Below are positions 13,684 to 61,447 of a DNA stretch of 64,000 nt, piece by piece. The stretch comes from Dictyostelium discoideum. Its lineage: Eukaryota. How positions within the stretch are numbered: the stretch's first letter is position 1; every line of letters starts with the position of its first letter. The notes under the pieces are model-generated. The model had not been told where the DNA came from, searched no databases, and saw nothing but the letters and a program-made list of their open reading frames with translations. The translations under genes were made by a program, and so were the position numbers. Where the stretch lies: NCBI GenBank assembly GCA_000004695.1, contig CM000152.2, positions 4,352,001-4,416,000 of the forward strand, read 5' to 3'.

Positions 13684-16637
13684 NNTTTTTTTTTTTTTTT
13701 TTTTTTTTTTTTATATCTTGTTTTTACGATTTACAAAAAATAAAATAATAAAAAATAATAAATAATAATAAAAAATAATAAAAATAAATAAAAAATAAAT
13801 AAAAAAATAAATAAAAAAATAAATAAAAAAATCAATAAAAAAATACATCTTTTATTACTTTTTAGGATTAAAAATATAATTGGATATTGTTGTATGAAGA
13901 AGAAAAGAAAAAAAAAAAAAAAAAAAATTTATTTCTGGTTGAAAGCGTAAAACCATCAAAAAAAAAAAAATAAAAAAATAAAAAAATAAAAAAAAATAAA
14001 ATAAAATTTTATAAAAAAAATCATCTTATTTTTGTTCAACGTGAAATTTTCTTTGGAATAATCTTGCTTAAGTTTGCATATAAAAAATCAAAAAAAGTAA
14101 AATTTTTTTTTTTATTTAAATTTAAAAATTATTCCATTAAAAAAACACGAAAATTAAAAATCAAAATTTAGTAACGTTGTACAAGCAGGGTGTGAAATTC
14201 ACAAAAAAATAAATAAAAAATAAAATTTTAAAAAAAGATATTAATTTTATTTTATATAAACACACACAAACCCTTTTGATTTTTAAAAATTATAATTTTT
14301 TTTTTTTATTTTTATTTTTCTATTTTTACTTTAAATTATGAATATTCTTTCGACAATCTTGGTCAAGGTGACTCATTTTTAAAATTTTTTTTATTTTATT
14401 TTTTTATTTTATTTTTTTTTTTTTTTTTAAGGTGATATTAAAATTAAAACAAAACATTGAAAGAGGAATTATTATAATTAAATTATGATTGAGTTTAGGT
14501 TAATTTAAATAGAATTTGATATATTCAGTTAAAACACTTACCAATTGATGATTTACCACTCTATCTTGGCTACCACAATAAATATATATATTTTTAGTTT
14601 TTATTTTTTAATTTTTTAATTTTTTTTTTTTATTGGTGGTTGGGAATTAATTTTAGTTATGATCAGATTTAATTTGAACTATAATTTATTAATTTAGTAA
14701 TATAAAAACCTATTTTTTTTTAATTTATAATTTTTAGATTTTCTCAATTTAATTTAGTACTGTTTTGTTTTAAATTTAAAGGAAAATAAATTAATTTTTA
14801 TATATTTTTTTTTTTTTTTTTTTCAACAAATAGGTCAATATTTTTAATTTATTTATTTTTTTCTTTTTTTTTGTTTTATTTGATTAAATTTTTAACAATC
14901 TTGATTAGGGTAAACAGTTATTTTTATTTTTATATTTTTATTTAACATTATTATTGTTATTATTTTATTTTTTTTTATTTTTTTATTTTTTTATTTTATC
15001 TTTTTTTTTTTTTTATATTACTCATTTTTCAAAATTACAAATGACCAAAATATAATTGTTTTGTTACAATAAAAAAAATAATATTGTCATATAAAATTGT
15101 TATCATTGTGAGTTAAATATTTAAAAATTAAAAAAAAAAAAAAATAAACTTTTAAGAATAATGCCATTTCTAAAAATGATCAAAATAATTTAAAAAAAAA
15201 ATAAATTAAAATAAATAGTTTGAATATATAAAAAAAAAAAAAATAACAAACACACGGATGTGAGGTTTAAAATATGTGTTATATAGGGTATTCTTTTAAT
15301 TCAATTATTATATGTATATAAATAGTTGTGTGAGTGTGTTATTTTAGTGGTTTTCTTCAAACACAATATGAAATTTTAAAAATTTAGCACAACCACACCA
15401 CCACACAACACTACACCATTAAAAATATTATGAATATATGTGTACTAGTTTTTTTATATTTTTTTTATTTTTATTTTATTTTTAAATATATTGTTTAATA
15501 TATATAAAATTTTTTTTTTTAAAATAATATTAAAAAAAAAAAAAAAAAAAAAAATAATAATAAGTGTTTTTAATATATTGTAATGTAAAATAATTATTAT
15601 AATTTATAAAAGGTATGTATGTGTAAAATATAAGTAATTTAGGACACAAATAACAAGTTCAAATAAAACCAAATTATTTTTTATTTTTTATATTTTTTTT
15701 TTTTTTAAAAAAATAAAAAAAAAAACACAAAAAAATTATTTATTTGTATTTATTTTAAAATTAATTTTTTTATTATAAAAAATATTTGTATTTTTATTTT
15801 AAAATTAATTTTTTAAATAATTATTAAATAAAATAAAATAAAAAAAACAAATTATTAATCATAATTTGAACAAAATAATTGGTATAAAAAATAGTATTAA
15901 TTTAGGTAAAAGAATAAAGATAATAAATTGTTCTTTTTTTGGGGTTTTTTTTTATAGTACAAATAATTTATTCCATCATTCTCGTATCATTTACACACCA
16001 TACAATACCATATTATACATAAAATATACAATAAACACAAATACACACACATCTATATATATCATTGTGAAAATAATTTCCATAGACATAAACCATACAA
16101 ATAATTAATTATTTAAAATTACAGATTTATTTGTATTTTTAAAATTTTTTTTTTTTAATAGTTTTTTTACTCTAGTTTTTTATTTTTTTATTTTTTAAAT
16201 TTTAATTTTATTTGTTTTTGTTTTATTTTTATTTTTATTTTTAATTTAATTATTTTTATAAAAATTATTGTGTTTTTTTCTGTTTGATTCATTTCAATAA
16301 ATAATTTATATTTTACTAATTTGAAAAAATCTATTTTTATGGAAAAAATATAAAAAATAAAGAGAAAAAAAAAAAAAAAAAAAAAAAAAAGGAATAAATA
16401 TAGTTTAAATTGTACAATACTTTCAATTTTTTTTTTTCTTTGTTAATCGATTTCAAATACAAAAAAAAAAAAAAAAAAAAAATTTATTTATTTATTTTTT
16501 ATGTATAGCTCCTGATAATAATAATAATTATAATAATAATAATTTAAATTTAAATTTAAAACAAGAAAATAGTATATTAAATATAAAACATATAAAACAA
16601 ATTAAACGAAATAAATTAATTATATATACAATTAAAA

Positions 16638-42973: not shown

Positions 42974-44599
42974 ACCCAAATAAAAAAATAAAATAAAATA
43001 AAATAATTTACATTTAAATCGATAAACAAATAAATAAATAAATAAAAAAAGTTGAATTTCTTGTAATATTTAATTAATTTGTTTTTTTATTTTATTTGTT
43101 AGTTTACTCCTTTTGCTATGTTGGGTATGTTTCTTATTTTTTTTTTGGGTGGTTGATTAGTTTTTGGTTTTCATTTTTTTTATTTTAGCACTGTCTATCT
43201 AGTTTTTCCACCTTTTTTTTTTTTTTTTTGAATAAAGATAAAATGCAAAAACATGAATTGATTAGAAGAGGATCGTTTTTTTTTTTTTTTTGATATAAAT
43301 AAACTATTGTAGTATACAATTAGTATGTTATTTTTATTTATTTATTTTAGGTTTTTTAGTTTTTGTGAATTTAAAATGGTATGTTATTTTAGATTAGGTA
43401 ATTAATAATTGATTGGTGGTGTAATTGTTGGAATTGGTTCATTTGTGTTTATGCTCCATTCTTTTTTAAATTTTTTGAAGGTTTAAATAATTACAGTTAA
43501 ACCTGTATTTTTTATATTGTGCGTTTTCTGCAAAATGAAAATTAATATTGATAGTTGGATCTGGTTTAAATGCTTTGTTGTTTGTTTGTGGTTTATAAAG
43601 GGTGTGTATAATTTTGTTGTTTGGTTTTTTGTTAGTGACCAGTTTTTGTTTCCATTGCAATTTTTATATATAAAATATTTTAATTTGTCGTGGTTTATGA
43701 AGTTGATTGTGTGCTGACAATTGAAAAACAAATGACCATAGGGATCATTATTCATTTCATTGTTGCAAATGGGGCAAACTTTGTTGTGTAGATGATTAAT
43801 CGGAAGACATCTAGTAAAGAATCTTTGCATTGTATCCAGGCCTTTTGGATCTTTTAATTTTTGAATTTTGACAAATAGTTGGTCGTATGTGTATTTCCAT
43901 AATAGTTGTATTGATTGTTGGTGCGAAGTAAGAGGTAGATCTGAATATTTCTTTCCAATATAGTCTTTTGATTTGCATTGGTGATTGTTGAGTATTGTCG
44001 AGTAGATTTCTTTGAGTGTTGGTGGTAGTGAAATATTATTTGTGGTTAATATTTGAGAGGTTTGGTTTTTTGTTAATATTGGTTGTAGGGTTTGAACTTT
44101 ATCTTTTAGATGTCCAATTTGAGTTGCATAGTTTTCCCATTCTTTTTTGATTTTTATAAGGTATGGAGAAGAGATTGATTTGTTGATGATTTGATCCATC
44201 CAACTTATCATGTATATTGAATTGTTTGCAGATTTATGCATATCCAAATCTTTTGAGCAACTTGTAGTAATTGTATATTCCACATACCCCAACCACCTTC
44301 TTTTAATGGTTTTAATGATCTATCATAACACATCAAAGGTAATTTTGCACGTGAATGGATGGTTGATGTGTTGTTTTCAATGGAATTGGTATTGAGAGTT
44401 GGTGATTCAGAATTTGCCGGAGAATTCATTAACCATGAGATTAATTTATTAATTTGAATTTCTTCATCTTTTGTAAATTCTTCAAGGTATGATAAATATG
44501 TTATTGGTGATAGTGAGTAGGTGTTTATGATGGTTGTTTTTGTTTTTAATGTTGTGCCACTAGTTTTCCATAGTACTAATGATTTATTCAGTGTTTTCA

Positions 44600-45820
44600 T
44601 TGTTTCTGGTAATTTCCTATGTAAACCATTATGATTAAAGAAATAGCCAAGGACTCTTTCTGATTGATATTTTTTGGTTATTGGTATTCTTTTTGATTGC
44701 GGAATGTTGTTTATTATGTGTTTATCTGTGATTTTGTGGGGGTTGATTTCTATTATTGCACTTTTGTCAAAATTTAATGATGATGATGTTGAAGCGCAGA
44801 AATTATCGAAATGTTTAATTGATTGTTGTTGTTGTTCGTAGTTGATGTTGTATGTTGCAAATTGGGTAAATTTGATTATAATTTGTGGATTGGGTGAAAT
44901 TGGTAATCCAATTATTGTATTGTCTGCATTTATTGTTCTTGCTAATATTTCAATTACAATTACAAATAAAGTGGCTGAGATTGGGTAACCTTGTTTTACA
45001 CCTCTTTTAATATCGAATTTTCTGGTCGTTTTACCATTAATTGAAATTTTTGCTTATGAGTCAGATAATAGCTTGTTGATTAAGTTTATTAATTTTATTG
45101 GTATACCAATATGAATTAATGTTCTTTTAATACTATGGTGAGAGATAGAATCAAATGCTTTAAAGTCAAATAGTGTGATGATATGAGGTTTTTAGATTTG
45201 AGGTAGTTGATTAATTCATTGATGTTGATGATGTTGTCTATGATGAATCTGTGGGGTACGAAACCAGTTTGGTTGTTGTTGATGATGAAAGGAAGTATTC
45301 TCAGAAGACGTGCATTGATTACTTTGGAGAGGATCTTGTAATCAGTGTTTAGAAGTGTAATAGGACGACGATTTGATATGAGTTAGGGGTTGCCTTTCTT
45401 GTATATTGTGTGTATAAGGCCTTCGGTGAATTCTGTTGTGATGTGGTGAGGGTTTTCTAGTATATCGTTGAATAATGTAGTGAAAATTGGTTTAACTTGG
45501 TTTAAATGATTAATGTAGAATGCATTTGTAACGCCATCTGGACCGAGTGATTTGTTGCAGCTTCAACTTCATCTTGTATAAATGGTGAGTCTAAACCATT
45601 CCAATATTCATTTTTTATGATGGGCCATGTGTTTAGCATGAGCTGGTGAGTAATTGGACAACATATTTGTAAGCTATATAGATTTGTGTAGAATTCAACA
45701 AAAGCATTTTCAATTTGGTCGGGGTCGGATGTAATGATGTTACCATATTGGATTGATTCAATTTTTGCATCTTTTGATCTTTTGTTTAGTATTGCTGATA
45801 GATACTTGCATCAATCCAAA
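44600..45820 (-). pseudogene. TRE3 ORF2 reverse-transcriptase domain, disrupted by frameshifts and stops
   Basis: Minus-strand translation gives LINE RT motifs (..FIINNNQTGFVPHRFIIDNII.., ..FDFKAFDSISHHSI.., ..KRGVKQGYPISATLF..). It needs at least three frame changes, and an in-frame stop lies near 45060. Confidence 0.6.
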
Positions 45821-45865
45821 CATATTAAAAAAACATATTAGGTATTTCTCCATTTATATGTTTTT

Positions 45866-46942
45866 TTAAATGGAGAAATACCTAATATGTTTTTTTAATA
45901 TGTTTGTGTGGTTTTGATGTAATTTGTTTTTGTTACATATATTATTGTATTCAGCGATGCATTGTTCTTCAAGATGTTTGAATTTTGCTGCTTTTTCTAA
46001 TGGTATTTGTTTTACACGTTGAGTTTGTTTGTCTTTGTTATATTGATAGTTTTTTAGAGTTTTAATAATTTTTGATTTTACTTTTGACCAATTTGAAAAT
46101 TGATTGATTGATGTGTTATTGTGATTAGTTATTAAATGATTGATAATATTGATTGCTTCATGGTCATTTGCAGTACCAGATGATAATATCCATCTTTTCT
46201 TATGTTTTTTTATTTGAAAAGGTGAAGAAATTGTTGTTGATACTGGATTATGATCTGATAATGAAGATGGAATTTGGTGGACTTGTGAATATATATTTTC
46301 AGGGTCTATTCTATTGTATTGAGTATATATTCTATCTAATCTGTTGCCATGTGTATGAGTTGGAGTGTTTTTAAATTCACCTTGATCAATTAGACGGTGT
46401 TGGTATGTGTAGGATTGGATAATATCATATAATAGTGAATTGTCGTTGTGGATACAGTTGAAATCTCCTGCGATAATAGACACATGTTGGGATTGGTTTG
46501 GTATTGGGTTTGTTGAGTGGATGTGGGGAAGTGTTTGTAGTGAAGTTGAATATGAATTCTTTTTGATGGTATTATTTGATGCTGGTGCGTAAATTCCAAG
46601 AATACCAATTGGTAATTGATTTGGAAATATAACGTCTACTAAAATAGCTCTACCATCAATTGTTGATATGTGTTTGAGTTTGAGTGTGTTTGGGTTATGG
46701 TTAAGGATGATTACACCATTTCCTCGTTTGGTGACAGAGATGATATGATCGGGAAAATCATGTTTAAGTTGTAATGGTGATGAATTGAGTTCAGTGAGAA
46801 TTGAGATTGTTGGACGAGGTGGAAGTTTTGATATAAGTAGTTGTAGTGTGTCAACAGCTTTTTGGTAGGAATTGTGTTGATTGTTTGGGTTTTCAGTGAA
46901 TCCTCTACAATTCCATGTTATAAAGTTGATTTTTGAGCTCAT
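45866..46942 (-). CDS. TRE3 ORF2 N-terminal apurinic/apyrimidinic-endonuclease-like (APE) domain
   Basis: The 358-aa ORF reads MSSKINFITWNCRGFTENPNN...ILTELNSSPLQ...IIAGDFNCIHND...HTHGNRLDRIYT..., the Exo-Endo-Phos fold of LINE endonucleases. It is truncated at its 3' end by the inverted duplication at 45821-45903. Confidence 0.7.
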   Translation of the reverse strand: MSSKINFITWNCRGFTENPNNQHNSYQKAVDTLQLLISKLPPRPTISILTELNSSPLQLKHDFPDHIISVTKRGNGVIILNHNPNTLKLKHISTIDGRAILVDVIFPNQLPIGILGIYAPASNNTIKKNSYSTSLQTLPHIHSTNPIPNQSQHVSIIAGDFNCIHNDNSLLYDIIQSYTYQHRLIDQGEFKNTPTHTHGNRLDRIYTQYNRIDPENIYSQVHQIPSSLSDHNPVSTTISSPFQIKKHKKRWILSSGTANDHEAINIINHLITNHNNTSINQFSNWSKVKSKIIKTLKNYQYNKDKQTQRVKQIPLEKAAKFKHLEEQCIAEYNNICNKNKLHQNHTNILKKHIRYFSI

Positions 46943-48310
46943 ACCTTACTAGGTTTGGCAGCACCAGTATTGACTGGTTGTGTAGTCAAGGCATTGCTGC
47001 TTCTTCTTGTATTTATTGTATTTGGAGTTGGTGCACTTGGTTTGTTTGGTTGAGATTGTAGAGGTTTTTGTGGTACAATTGTTGGATCGGTTGGATTGCT
47101 CATTGATAATGAGTTTTTCCCGTTATTATTATTTGAAGAATCACTTTTGTGTGAAATTTCATTATTGTTTTGGGATTGATTGTTAATATCAAGTGATTCA
47201 TTTAGTGTAGCTTTTGAACCACTATTTTGAAGTGGGTTATTATTGCGATTGGAACTTGCAATTTCGTTGATTGGTGGGGTGTTAATGTTGTTTTTAGGTG
47301 GATGATTGTTATTGTTAATATTTGGGTTTTTGAGAGCATTTTTTATAGTTGTTGCCATATCTGCATTTTTTGCATGTTGAATTTTGTGTTTAGTGACACT
47401 ACATGTTGCAGCTTTGATATATCTTGTGATACCAGATGGTTGTTCGATCTTTTGATCAACAATGTTGTGTGTGTGATCAATGTTATAATGTAGCTTTTAA
47501 ACGCAACAGCATATGAGTATGTGACAGTAAATGATTCAATTGATGTACAACTGGTGAATTTGGTGAGGTTGTTTATAATTGCATCGTTTGCATGTTTGGG
47601 TGAGTACGTTTGAATGAATGTTTTAATGATTGCATAATCATTTGATGATATTTCGAATCTATAGTTGAGTTTGTGGATATTTAGTGCAAGTTTGTTTTGA
47701 AGGTTGATTATTGAAGTTAATTTATCAACGTTGCAATTTACGAAGGCAGTTGCACCAATTATTTTAAATGCTGATGGCGACAGTATATCTTCGAAGAGTT
47801 TGTGAATGTTTTTGTGAATTTGTTGAATTCTTGTGTCATCTTTAGAGGTTAATTCTTCACGGATGTGTGGTTGATTAAAGTAACACTTAATGTTGATGGT
47901 GTTATTGTTTTTTTCTAAGAAGGAGAGTGGTCTTGTGATTGATGGAGGTGCAATGATATCTAATTGATTATCAAGTCCTTTGTTAAGTGAGAATTGATTT
48001 GTTGGGGTTTGTTTTTTAGGTGTGTCGATTTTTGCACTTTTGTTTTTTGTTGTTGAGGTTGTGGAGGTATTATTTGTATTGGTTGTGTCGTTATCTGAAT
48101 GATTTAACTGGAATTCAGTTGAGTGATCATCAGCCGTTGTTGAAAAGTATATAGGACGATAGCCCTTGCTTTATTGAGTAAAACTAGGGCAAAATTAAGT
48201 GGAATGAATGTGGTGGTGAAGATATAGCAGTGATTTATTTATTATATGAATAAATTCTTGTTTATTTCTTTGTTTCGTTTCTTTGTTTTGTTTCGGTTTT
48301 TATTTTTAGA

Positions 48311-48321
48311 AGAGGATCGAA
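48311..48321 (-). promoter_or_regulatory. ex-B box downstream of tRNA-Gly (GTGTTCGATCC on the gene strand)
   Basis: The B-box consensus lies about 35 bp 3' of the tRNA end, between the tRNA and the TRE3 5' end. Confidence 0.55.
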
Positions 48322-48355
48322 CACTTGATCTATTCAAGATTTTTTTAAAAATATA

Positions 48356-48426
48356 TGCGTATGCTGGGAATCGAACCCAGTTCGCATCCGTGGCAGGGAT
48401 GCATCATACCACTAGACCACATACGC
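48356..48426 (-). tRNA. tRNA-Gly (anticodon GCC)
   Basis: The reverse complement is GCGTATGTGGTCTAGTGGTATGATGCATCCCTGCCACGGATGCGAACTGGGTTCGATTCCCAGCATACGCA. The anticodon stem CATCC/GGATG encloses the loop CTGCCAC. It is identical to the second copy at 61344..61414. Confidence 0.9.
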
Positions 48427-48470
48427 TTTTTTTATATTTCTGAAAAAAATTTACCAAAATTTATGTCGTA

Positions 48471-48922
48471 ATGGGGAATAAAATCAACAGCCATTATCTG
48501 CGAAAACATCTGGAGAAGAAAATTCATGAAGGAATAACACTCAAAAACTTAAGAAAAGAACCACTAGTACACGAACTAAAGAAAACTCAAACAGCAGCCG
48601 GGAAAGAACAAAAAACAACATATACAAACTAATCAGACAAGAAAAAAAAGCAACCAATAACGAACAAAAAAAAAATTCAAAAACATCATCTCCCTGCAAT
48701 TCGAATGATTTAGCAAACACTGGAACTCACCACTACACACAGTAGCACTACCATCAAACCTCAATAAATATATTACATCATTCAACACACTCCGCACCCC
48801 CCAACTTTAAAAAAAAAAAAAAAAAAAACCATACAACCTTAAAAGGCACCTGTAATATTTAATAATAAAATGAGATATATCTCAAGAAGAAGCAACTAAA
48901 AATTGCGTTATTCCATCAAAAA
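48471..48922 (+). mobile_element. Short TRE5-like, poly(A)-ended non-LTR retroelement fragment flanked by a 15-bp target-site duplication
   Basis: A perfect direct repeat aaaatttatgtcgta occurs at 48456-48470 and 48923-48937. The 452 bp between them are not AT-rich. They start ATGGGGAATAAAATCAACAGCCATTATCTGCG... (a 53-codon ORF) and end ...gttattccatc(a)9 immediately before the right repeat. The insertion point is about 45 bp upstream of the tRNA-Gly 5' end, the characteristic TRE5 position of 48±3 bp. The element lies head-to-head with the tRNA. Confidence 0.65.
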
Positions 48923-49225
48923 AAAATTTATGTCGTATTTATAATCAGTCCTATAAAAAAACATTTAGTAATAATTGTTTATAATAAAATTAATAATACA
49001 TATATTACTTAAATAAAACCCGTACACATCCCTGGTTGGTTGAGGCCATTAAAAAGAAAAAAAATACTTTTTCAAAACTAGAATTCAACAGAATCACAAA
49101 AACAAACGGAAAAAAAAAAATAAAATAAAAAAAAAAAAAATAAAAATAAATAAATTTTTTTTTTTTTTCTTCTTACTAATTTTTTTTTTTTTTTTTTTTT
49201 TTCTACAATTTAAAAAAAAAACACA

Positions 49226-61343: not shown

Positions 61344-61414
61344 GCGTATGTGGTCTAGTGGTATGATGCATCCCTGCCACGGATGCGAACTGGGTTCGAT
61401 TCCCAGCATACGCA
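61344..61414 (+). tRNA. tRNA-Gly (anticodon GCC), second identical copy
   Basis: This 71-nt sequence is identical to the reverse complement of 48356..48426. Confidence 0.9.
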
Positions 61415-61447
61415 CAAATTTTAAATGCCTGATTTATTAGATCAACT

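Follow-up and report, generated by a model that had tools for sequence, protein, structure and literature searches.

TRE5-C is a tRNA gene-targeted retroelement of Dictyostelium discoideum that was reportedly described by Glöckner et al. in 2001 and was treated by Siol et al. in 2011 (PMC3159450). It contains a C-module and lacks a B-module at its 3' end. Over the 3' 87 nt its C-module shows 78% identity to the TRE5-A.1 C-module, and the fold comprises 51 nt with an energy of -12.5 kcal/mol, compared with 54 nt and -20.1 kcal/mol for TRE5-A (PMC3159450). The last ~54 nt of the TRE5-A C-module fold into three stems, and retrotransposition is abolished when C38/A35 (stem I) or C26/T15 (stem III) are mutated (PMC3159450). 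TRE5-A integrates 47 ± 3 bp upstream of tRNA genes (PMC5391098), in a fixed orientation and with target-site duplications of 10-16 bp (PMC9012585), and 5' truncation of the copies is described as typical. Of the tRNA genes of D. discoideum, 61% have a TRE and 13% have a TRE5 as well as a TRE3 (PMC5006619).

Here we analysed a short insert next to a tRNA-Gly gene in a 64-kb window of the D. discoideum genome (Table 1). Judged by its position, its 3' end and its coding remnant, the insert is very probably a 5'-truncated TRE5 copy that bears a C-module and does not belong to TRE5-A.

Table 1. Coordinates of the insert, its parts and the neighbouring features in the 64-kb window.
Feature	Position	Strand	Basis or remark
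TRE3-A-like retrotransposon, ~5.03 kb, downstream of the same tRNA-Gly gene	43276-48305	-	own duplication
Duplication of the TRE3-A-like element, two copies	43262-43275 and 48306-48319		perfect, 14 bp, TTAGAAGAGGATCG
tRNA-Gly(GCC) gene, integration target	48356-48426	-	ARAGORN; Rfam tRNA, 63.6 bits
Left copy of the insert duplication	48456-48470		AAAATTTATGTCGTA, exact
Insert	48471-48922	+	452 bp, between both AAAATTTATGTCGTA copies
ATG-initiated ORF of 53 codons	48471-48632		
Decayed remnant of the last ~110 TRE5 ORF2 codons	48480-48810	+	nucleotide and protein alignments
Ancestral ORF2 stop codon, TAA	48808-48810		directly before the A run
Internal A20 run after the ORF2 stop	48809-48828	+	sequence
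3' 89 nt of the C-module	48829-48917	+	homology, folds
Three predicted stems	within 48870-48913	+	I UGAGAU/AUCUCA, II GAA/UUC, III GCAA/UUGC
Oligo(A) tail	48918-48926	+	9 A, last 4 shared with the right duplication copy
Right copy of the insert duplication	48923-48937		AAAATTTATGTCGTA, exact
Second tRNA-Gly(GCC) gene	61344-61415	+	no TRE upstream

The insert is flanked by two exact copies of a 15-bp sequence. This repeat had already been recognised in the first-pass annotation, which took it for a target-site duplication, and it was confirmed here: no further copy of AAAATTTATGTCGTA was found in the 64-kb window, even with up to two mismatches allowed. The annotation had also named a common low-complexity 15-mer as the finding that would overturn this interpretation. 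In the AT-rich window there are 88,169 exact direct pairs of 15-mers that lie 100-7000 bp apart, and the AAAATTTATGTCGTA pair is the only one of them that survives a complexity filter (at least three G/C and at least 11 distinct trimers). The repeat is thus a complex word, and its pair is unique in the window. As the genome is very AT-rich, and as shuffled sequences also yield two matches once two mismatches are allowed, one might still suppose that the pair arose by accident and that nothing was inserted. However, both matches are exact, the chance of AAAATTTATGTCGTA recurring within 7 kb is about 1e-4 as calculated from base composition, and the repeats precisely bracket a segment that runs from an ORF2 homologue to a C-module with oligo(A). 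An accidental repeat has therefore practically no chance of being the explanation.

The terminal run of nine A, likewise noticed in the earlier annotation, overlaps with the duplication, as its final four A are the first four bases of the right AAAATTTATGTCGTA copy. Because these four A are common to the tail and the repeat, the duplication measures 11-15 bp and the tail 5-9 A, and both the duplication size and the 3' oligo(A) are those of a TRE5 insertion. The insert is richer in GC than its surroundings, as first described (32% compared with 22% for the window), and its plus strand is rich in A and C (A227, C97, T80, G48). The claim that the intact duplication makes the event recent could be kept only in part. 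The duplication itself is real, but recency is only weakly implied by it, since several percent of divergence would be tolerated: at 5% divergence all 30 duplication sites stay unchanged about 22% of the time. A perfect duplication of 11-15 bp is thus a weak clock. No second copy of the insert was found in the window, where self-BLAST gave only low-complexity matches of A runs. Neither a 24-mer from its 5' part nor a degenerate C-module core matched anything in collections of genome and metagenome contigs, which contain no DNA of Dictyostelium. An A/C-rich stretch at 24.0-25.0 kb was considered as a second copy and rejected, as it is a low-complexity part of a protein kinase gene.

The 5'-terminal base of the insert (48471) lies 45 bp upstream of where the tRNA-Gly gene starts (48426), within the distance of 47 ± 3 bp at which TRE5 elements are found. 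The sense strand of the insert is the plus strand, with the 5' end toward the tRNA gene and the A tail distal, and it is divergent to the tRNA gene on the minus strand. The same orientation, with a proximal 5' end and divergent transcription, is seen in the three TRE5 elements at the comparison loci L002, L006 and L007 described below. Taken together, the real duplication, the distance of 45 bp and the canonical orientation bear out the first-pass assignment of the insert as a product of TRE5-family retrotransposition; the tRNA-Gly gene itself was implied there without being named.

The other side of the same tRNA-Gly gene is occupied as well. The TRE3-A-like retrotransposon downstream of it is flanked by its own perfect duplication, and the locus belongs to the 13% of tRNA genes with both a TRE5 and a TRE3. 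The TRE3-A-like element is inserted at the ex-B box (GTTCGATCC). Frameshifts and stops interrupt its RT region, and its APE part is an intact ORF of 358 aa. The ORFs of the element are 99-100% identical to the AX4 proteins DDB_G0281357 and DDB_G0281355, which assigns the window to strain AX4; an exact protein record was found neither for the APE ORF nor for the neighbouring ORF of 93 aa, and none for the AX4 proteins P0001 and P0002. The insert shows no match to this element.

Some further observations concern other tRNA genes of the window. The second tRNA-Gly(GCC) gene has no TRE upstream and is a paralogous, unoccupied target in the same window. Just downstream of a tRNA-Phe gene (1450-1523, minus strand), a stretch of 256 bp (1141-1396) is 95% identical to positions 14414-14669 of locus L004. 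This locus belongs to a different D. discoideum assembly and is rich in transposons, with a tRNA-Ile gene nearby, and the 256 bp are part of some repeat family. About 35-90 bp upstream of the same tRNA-Phe gene an inverted repeat of ~22 bp (gagcttttaaattaattggaaa ... tttccaatttaaaagctc, at ~1556-1612) falls into the integration zone of TRE5 and DGLT-A.

The elements used for comparison were reached through their proteins. An RT query pieced together from the TRE3 element yielded a set of dictyostelid RT proteins, including P0021. An exhaustive search with P0021 led to closer relatives, among them P0138/P0270, a cluster with multiple copies in AX4, and P0124 from D. cf. discoideum. P0270 contains the peptides DCSVDNN and DSRAIFL, which belong to the published TRE5-A ORF2 primers Rep-75 and Rep-176, and is therefore TRE5-A ORF2. 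The AX4 copies of this ORF2 cluster at an identity of at least 90%. Via P0138 we reached a 5'-truncated TRE5-A copy of 1.8 kb (L006, 6787-8600), which is situated 46 bp upstream of a tRNA-Met gene between the two copies of a 12-bp duplication, TTAATAAATATA. Its 3' end consists of the ORF2 stop, an A run, a B-module of 290 bp, a second A run, the C-module and oligo(A). The B-module carries the ORF1 start MKITNNTTNI together with primer Rep-108, in agreement with the isoleucine that is published for position 10 of TRE5-A ORF1 (PMC3159450).

Two further elements extend the comparison beyond TRE5-A. In D. cf. discoideum an apparently intact TRE5 (L007, ~4800-10150) with an ORF2 of 993 aa (P0124) is located upstream of a tRNA-Val gene, and its 3' end runs from the ORF2 stop over an A run to a C-module, without a B-module. 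Its ORF2 tail is about equidistant from TRE5-A and from the insert (64-67% nucleotide identity). The element of ~6.1 kb that was found via P0021 (L002) is also of the TRE5 type; it lies 47 bp upstream of a tRNA-Thr gene, has a duplication of 11 bp, contains no C-module and appears to be TRE5-B-like. Loci L003-L005, which were fetched via TRE3-type RT proteins, contain no sequence related to the insert.

Comparison with these elements showed what the insert is made of. The final ~310 nt of the TRE5-A ORF2 in L006 match nucleotides 10-314 of the insert colinearly at 65% identity, with an alignment score of 178 compared with 47 ± 8 for shuffled sequences (z=17). Nucleotides 10-322 align in the same way to the ORF2 tail of L007 (P0124), with 64% identity and z=15. 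On the protein level the translation in frame 2 scores 129, 127 and 89 against the tails of TRE5-A, P0124 and the TRE5-B-like element, respectively, while shuffle nulls lie at 34-37 ± 6. The identity of the remnant to its nearest intact relatives is 35-41% on this level, and the motifs HELKKTQ and FSKxWNSPL...LP..L..YITS.NTL are common to the insert and its relatives. Homology to the TRE5 ORF2, an APE-RT-zinc finger polyprotein, is thus found for the C-terminal ~110 codons only.

The remnant is decayed. Its frame order is 2, 1 and again 2; it contains in-frame stops and no fewer than two indels that shift the frame, and the first frame change is explained by deletions of 3 nt and 7 nt relative to both intact relatives. 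Reading frame 2 throughout, which contains six stops, was tried and rejected, as the comparison with P0124 puts the middle part in frame 1 and the damage lies mainly in two indels. HELKKTQ in the middle third is read in frame 1 and matches P0124 exactly. The frameshifts and the low protein identity point to an old source lineage or to decay of the copy.

The insert begins with the ATG-initiated ORF of 53 codons that was pointed out in the first-pass annotation. This ORF does exist, but the ATG stands at the truncation point and is not a translation start. Neither an exact look-up nor a homologue search gave a record for the 53-aa product. Only its codons ~16-53 share the ancestral ORF2 frame, while the rest of ORF2 is in frame 2. 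The ORF is an accident of the truncation point and of a stretch of the old ORF2 frame.

These alignments also decide on the make-up of the insert. It had been proposed to be a severely 5'- or internally truncated TRE5, composed of an A-module and a C-module. Plain 5' truncation describes it well, and an internal deletion is not needed. In support of an internally deleted TRE5, in which the 5' A-module is joined to the C-module, the length of ~450 bp corresponds roughly to an A-module (200 bp) and a C-module (134 bp) with some extra sequence, and an ATG is present at the 5' end. However, what fills nucleotides 10-322 is a decayed ORF2 3' end, homologous to that of three TRE5 elements, which leaves no room for an A-module. 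In addition, the ATG ORF has no homologues, and the ORF1 of TRE5-A begins with MKITNNTTNI within the B-module and not with MGNKINSHYL. An A-module joined to a C-module is barely credible as the origin of the insert.

Behind the ORF2 stop the insert continues directly with the A20 run and the C-module. This run is absent from the first-pass annotation, but it is important for the structure of the insert. An A run after the ORF2 stop is also present in TRE5-A (L006), in the element of L007 and in the TRE5-B-like element of L002. The last 60 nt of the insert are 84% identical to the C-module of the TRE5-A copy in L006, and all three stems are kept. The identity of the C-module to that of TRE5-A is 70% over 87 nt and, in a second comparison, 82-83% over the last 54-60 nt. 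No B-module sequence was found in the insert by comparison with the B-modules of L006, L001 and L002.

At locus L001 (14094-14453) a second C-module of the insert subtype was found. An inverted repeat of ~40 bp carries B-box-like GGTTCGACTCCC motifs on both arms. It adjoins a B+C end of TRE5-A, behind which an 89-nt C-module of the insert subtype (unit 2) stands in tandem, and each of the two units ends in oligo(A). This arrangement suggests that elements integrated here one after the other, at a site which resembles a B box without belonging to a tRNA gene. The last ~100 nt of the insert are 85% identical to unit 2.

In the insert the C-module is predicted to fold into the same three stems as in TRE5-A. 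Among five C-module copies compared, standard pairs occupy 95% of the stem pair cells. The nucleotides corresponding to C38, A35, C26 and T15 are found at exactly these positions in the TRE5-A copies and one position nearer to the 3' end in the insert, and in all copies they fall within the predicted stems I and III. Compared with TRE5-A, stem-loop I of the insert is shorter by 3 nt. In stem II there is one compensatory change between the two subtypes, from G-C in TRE5-A to A-U in the insert subtype, which is weak covariation evidence, as only few sequences (five copies) are compared. The predicted fold energy is -11.7 kcal/mol for the insert and -16.6 kcal/mol for TRE5-A (ViennaRNA, 22 °C). 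In direction and size these differences from TRE5-A are in line with those published for TRE5-C, but both the program and the copies differ from those behind the published values. From these predictions the three-stem structure of the C-module appears to be at least conserved in a diverged lineage. As this is the structure that is experimentally required for TRE5-A retrotransposition, its conservation is a mildly useful by-product of the analysis.

The layout of the 3' end separates the insert from TRE5-A itself. TRE5-A (A.1 or A.2) is an abundant and active family, and a 5'-truncated copy of it would agree with the insert in site, orientation, duplication size and the C-module type of 3' end. 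However, in such a copy the ORF2 stop is expected to be separated from the C-module by the 290-bp B-module, and a TRE5-A 3' end of 452 bp would consist almost wholly of B and C. The insert has neither the order ORF2 - B-module - C-module nor the high ORF2 identity of the family, since the identity of its ORF2 tail to TRE5-A is 65% for nucleotides and 35% for protein, compared with at least 90% among the AX4 copies of TRE5-A. Moreover, the TRE5-A primers match nothing in the window. It is therefore very improbable that the insert was derived from TRE5-A. An assignment to TRE5-B was excluded, as TRE5-B is without a C-module.

The features that remain agree with TRE5-C, which has a C-module as 3' end and no B-module in the 3' UTR, as was found here. 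Based on the layout and the published descriptors the family name TRE5-C is the one we somewhat favour for the insert, with less certainty than its place among the truncated, C-module-bearing TRE5 copies outside TRE5-A.

Another proposal of the first-pass annotation was a SINE-like rider on the TRE5 machinery. In that case the insert would be complete and would belong to a family of short non-autonomous elements whose 5' end is defined and which use TRE5 proteins via their C-module. A perfect duplication beside a decayed coding remnant could indeed mean that a non-coding master was mobilised in trans, as TRE5-A.2 is, and the C-module stems that are needed for retrotransposition are intact. However, no head derived from a tRNA, 5S or 7SL gene is present, and no A-module or other promoter module either; where a SINE would have a polymerase III RNA-gene head or an internal promoter, the insert has the ORF2 remnant. 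Rfam gave no match at gathering score inside the insert, and in an E-value scan of 48200-49100 only the neighbouring tRNA was significant. The insert is colinear over its whole length with the 3' end of a full-length TRE5, which is the picture of a simple truncation. There is no second copy in the window that would define a family, and the only other copy of the subtype that was found, the 89-nt unit 2 of L001, starts elsewhere. A SINE-like family is therefore quite improbable, and truncation of a longer element is preferred.

The insert was regarded from the beginning as far too short to be autonomous, and this was borne out: because it has no promoter module and no intact ORF, it cannot move again. 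It is very probably a dead-on-arrival, 5'-truncated TRE5 copy from a lineage that has a C-module and no 3' B-module. It combines a complete, A-tailed 3' end with a 5' end at an arbitrary point of ORF2, a target-site duplication of the variable-length kind and a fixed distance and orientation toward the tRNA gene. This anatomy is the signature of incomplete target-primed reverse transcription, which has been described for TRE5-A and for LINE-like elements at large.

The individual steps can be proposed from the established model of TRE5-A, from which we infer them. An ORF2 protein, encoded by the element itself or provided in trans, would bind the element RNA at its structured 3' C-module. The complex would then be guided to the tRNA-Gly gene occupied by TFIIIB and TFIIIC, where targeting may proceed through the ORF1 protein and TFIIIB. 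An endonuclease nick ~45-50 bp upstream of the tRNA-Gly gene would prime reverse transcription on the oligo(A) tail, i.e., target-primed reverse transcription, which presumably ended early, after ~450 nt. A staggered cleavage of the second strand would finally give rise to the duplication of 11-15 bp.

As the frame is broken while the duplication is still perfect, the template may already have been non-coding when it was copied. A more specific scenario is that a non-coding RNA of the TRE5-C type was mobilised in trans by the ORF2 protein of TRE5-A via the three-stem C-module, in a recent event that is polymorphic among isolates. We consider this unlikely. If true, the trans-mobilised source would represent cross-family parasitism, analogous to TRE5-A.2.

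As a truncated TRE5 copy the insert is an ordinary object of an already known kind in this genome, and it matters little beyond annotation. It is, however, a clean worked example of how a short, seemingly ORF-bearing insert beside a tRNA gene is to be read, namely as the 3' end of a LINE-like element and not as a new SINE.

Compared with known systems, the insert resembles the 5'-truncated copies of L1 and other LINEs, which are likewise incomplete products of target-primed reverse transcription with an A-tailed 3' end, a variable 5' end and flanking duplications. In contrast to these, its site would be determined via the RNA polymerase III transcription complex and not by an AT-rich consensus at the nick site. 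The TRE5-B-like element of L002 also lies 47 bp upstream of a tRNA gene and has a distantly homologous ORF2 tail whose stop is followed by an A run, but it has no C-module, and the identity between the two ORF2 tails is as low as 56% at the nucleotide and 24% at the protein level. TRE5-A (DRE) as seen in L006 is closer: it shares the site (46 bp compared with 45 bp), the orientation, the duplication size (12 bp compared with 11-15 bp) and the oligo(A) tail, its ORF2 tail and its C-module are homologous to those of the insert, and its C-module has the same three stems. It differs in its 290-bp B-module and in its longer stem-loop I. The 3' architecture of the L007 element, which is without a B-module, is identical to that of the insert, and its P0124 is the best protein match to the ORF2 tail (41%, with HELKKTQ and YITSxNTL in common). 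The element comes from another species, however, its ORF2 of 993 aa is intact, and with 64% nucleotide identity it does not belong to the family of the insert at the sequence level. TRE5-C, which was compared by its descriptions, agrees with the insert in the position upstream of tRNA genes, in a C-module related to that of TRE5-A, and in the lack of a 3' B-module, and the three-stem fold is predicted to be weaker than in TRE5-A, as published for TRE5-C, whereas the insert consists of the last ~450 nt only and its coding remnant is broken.
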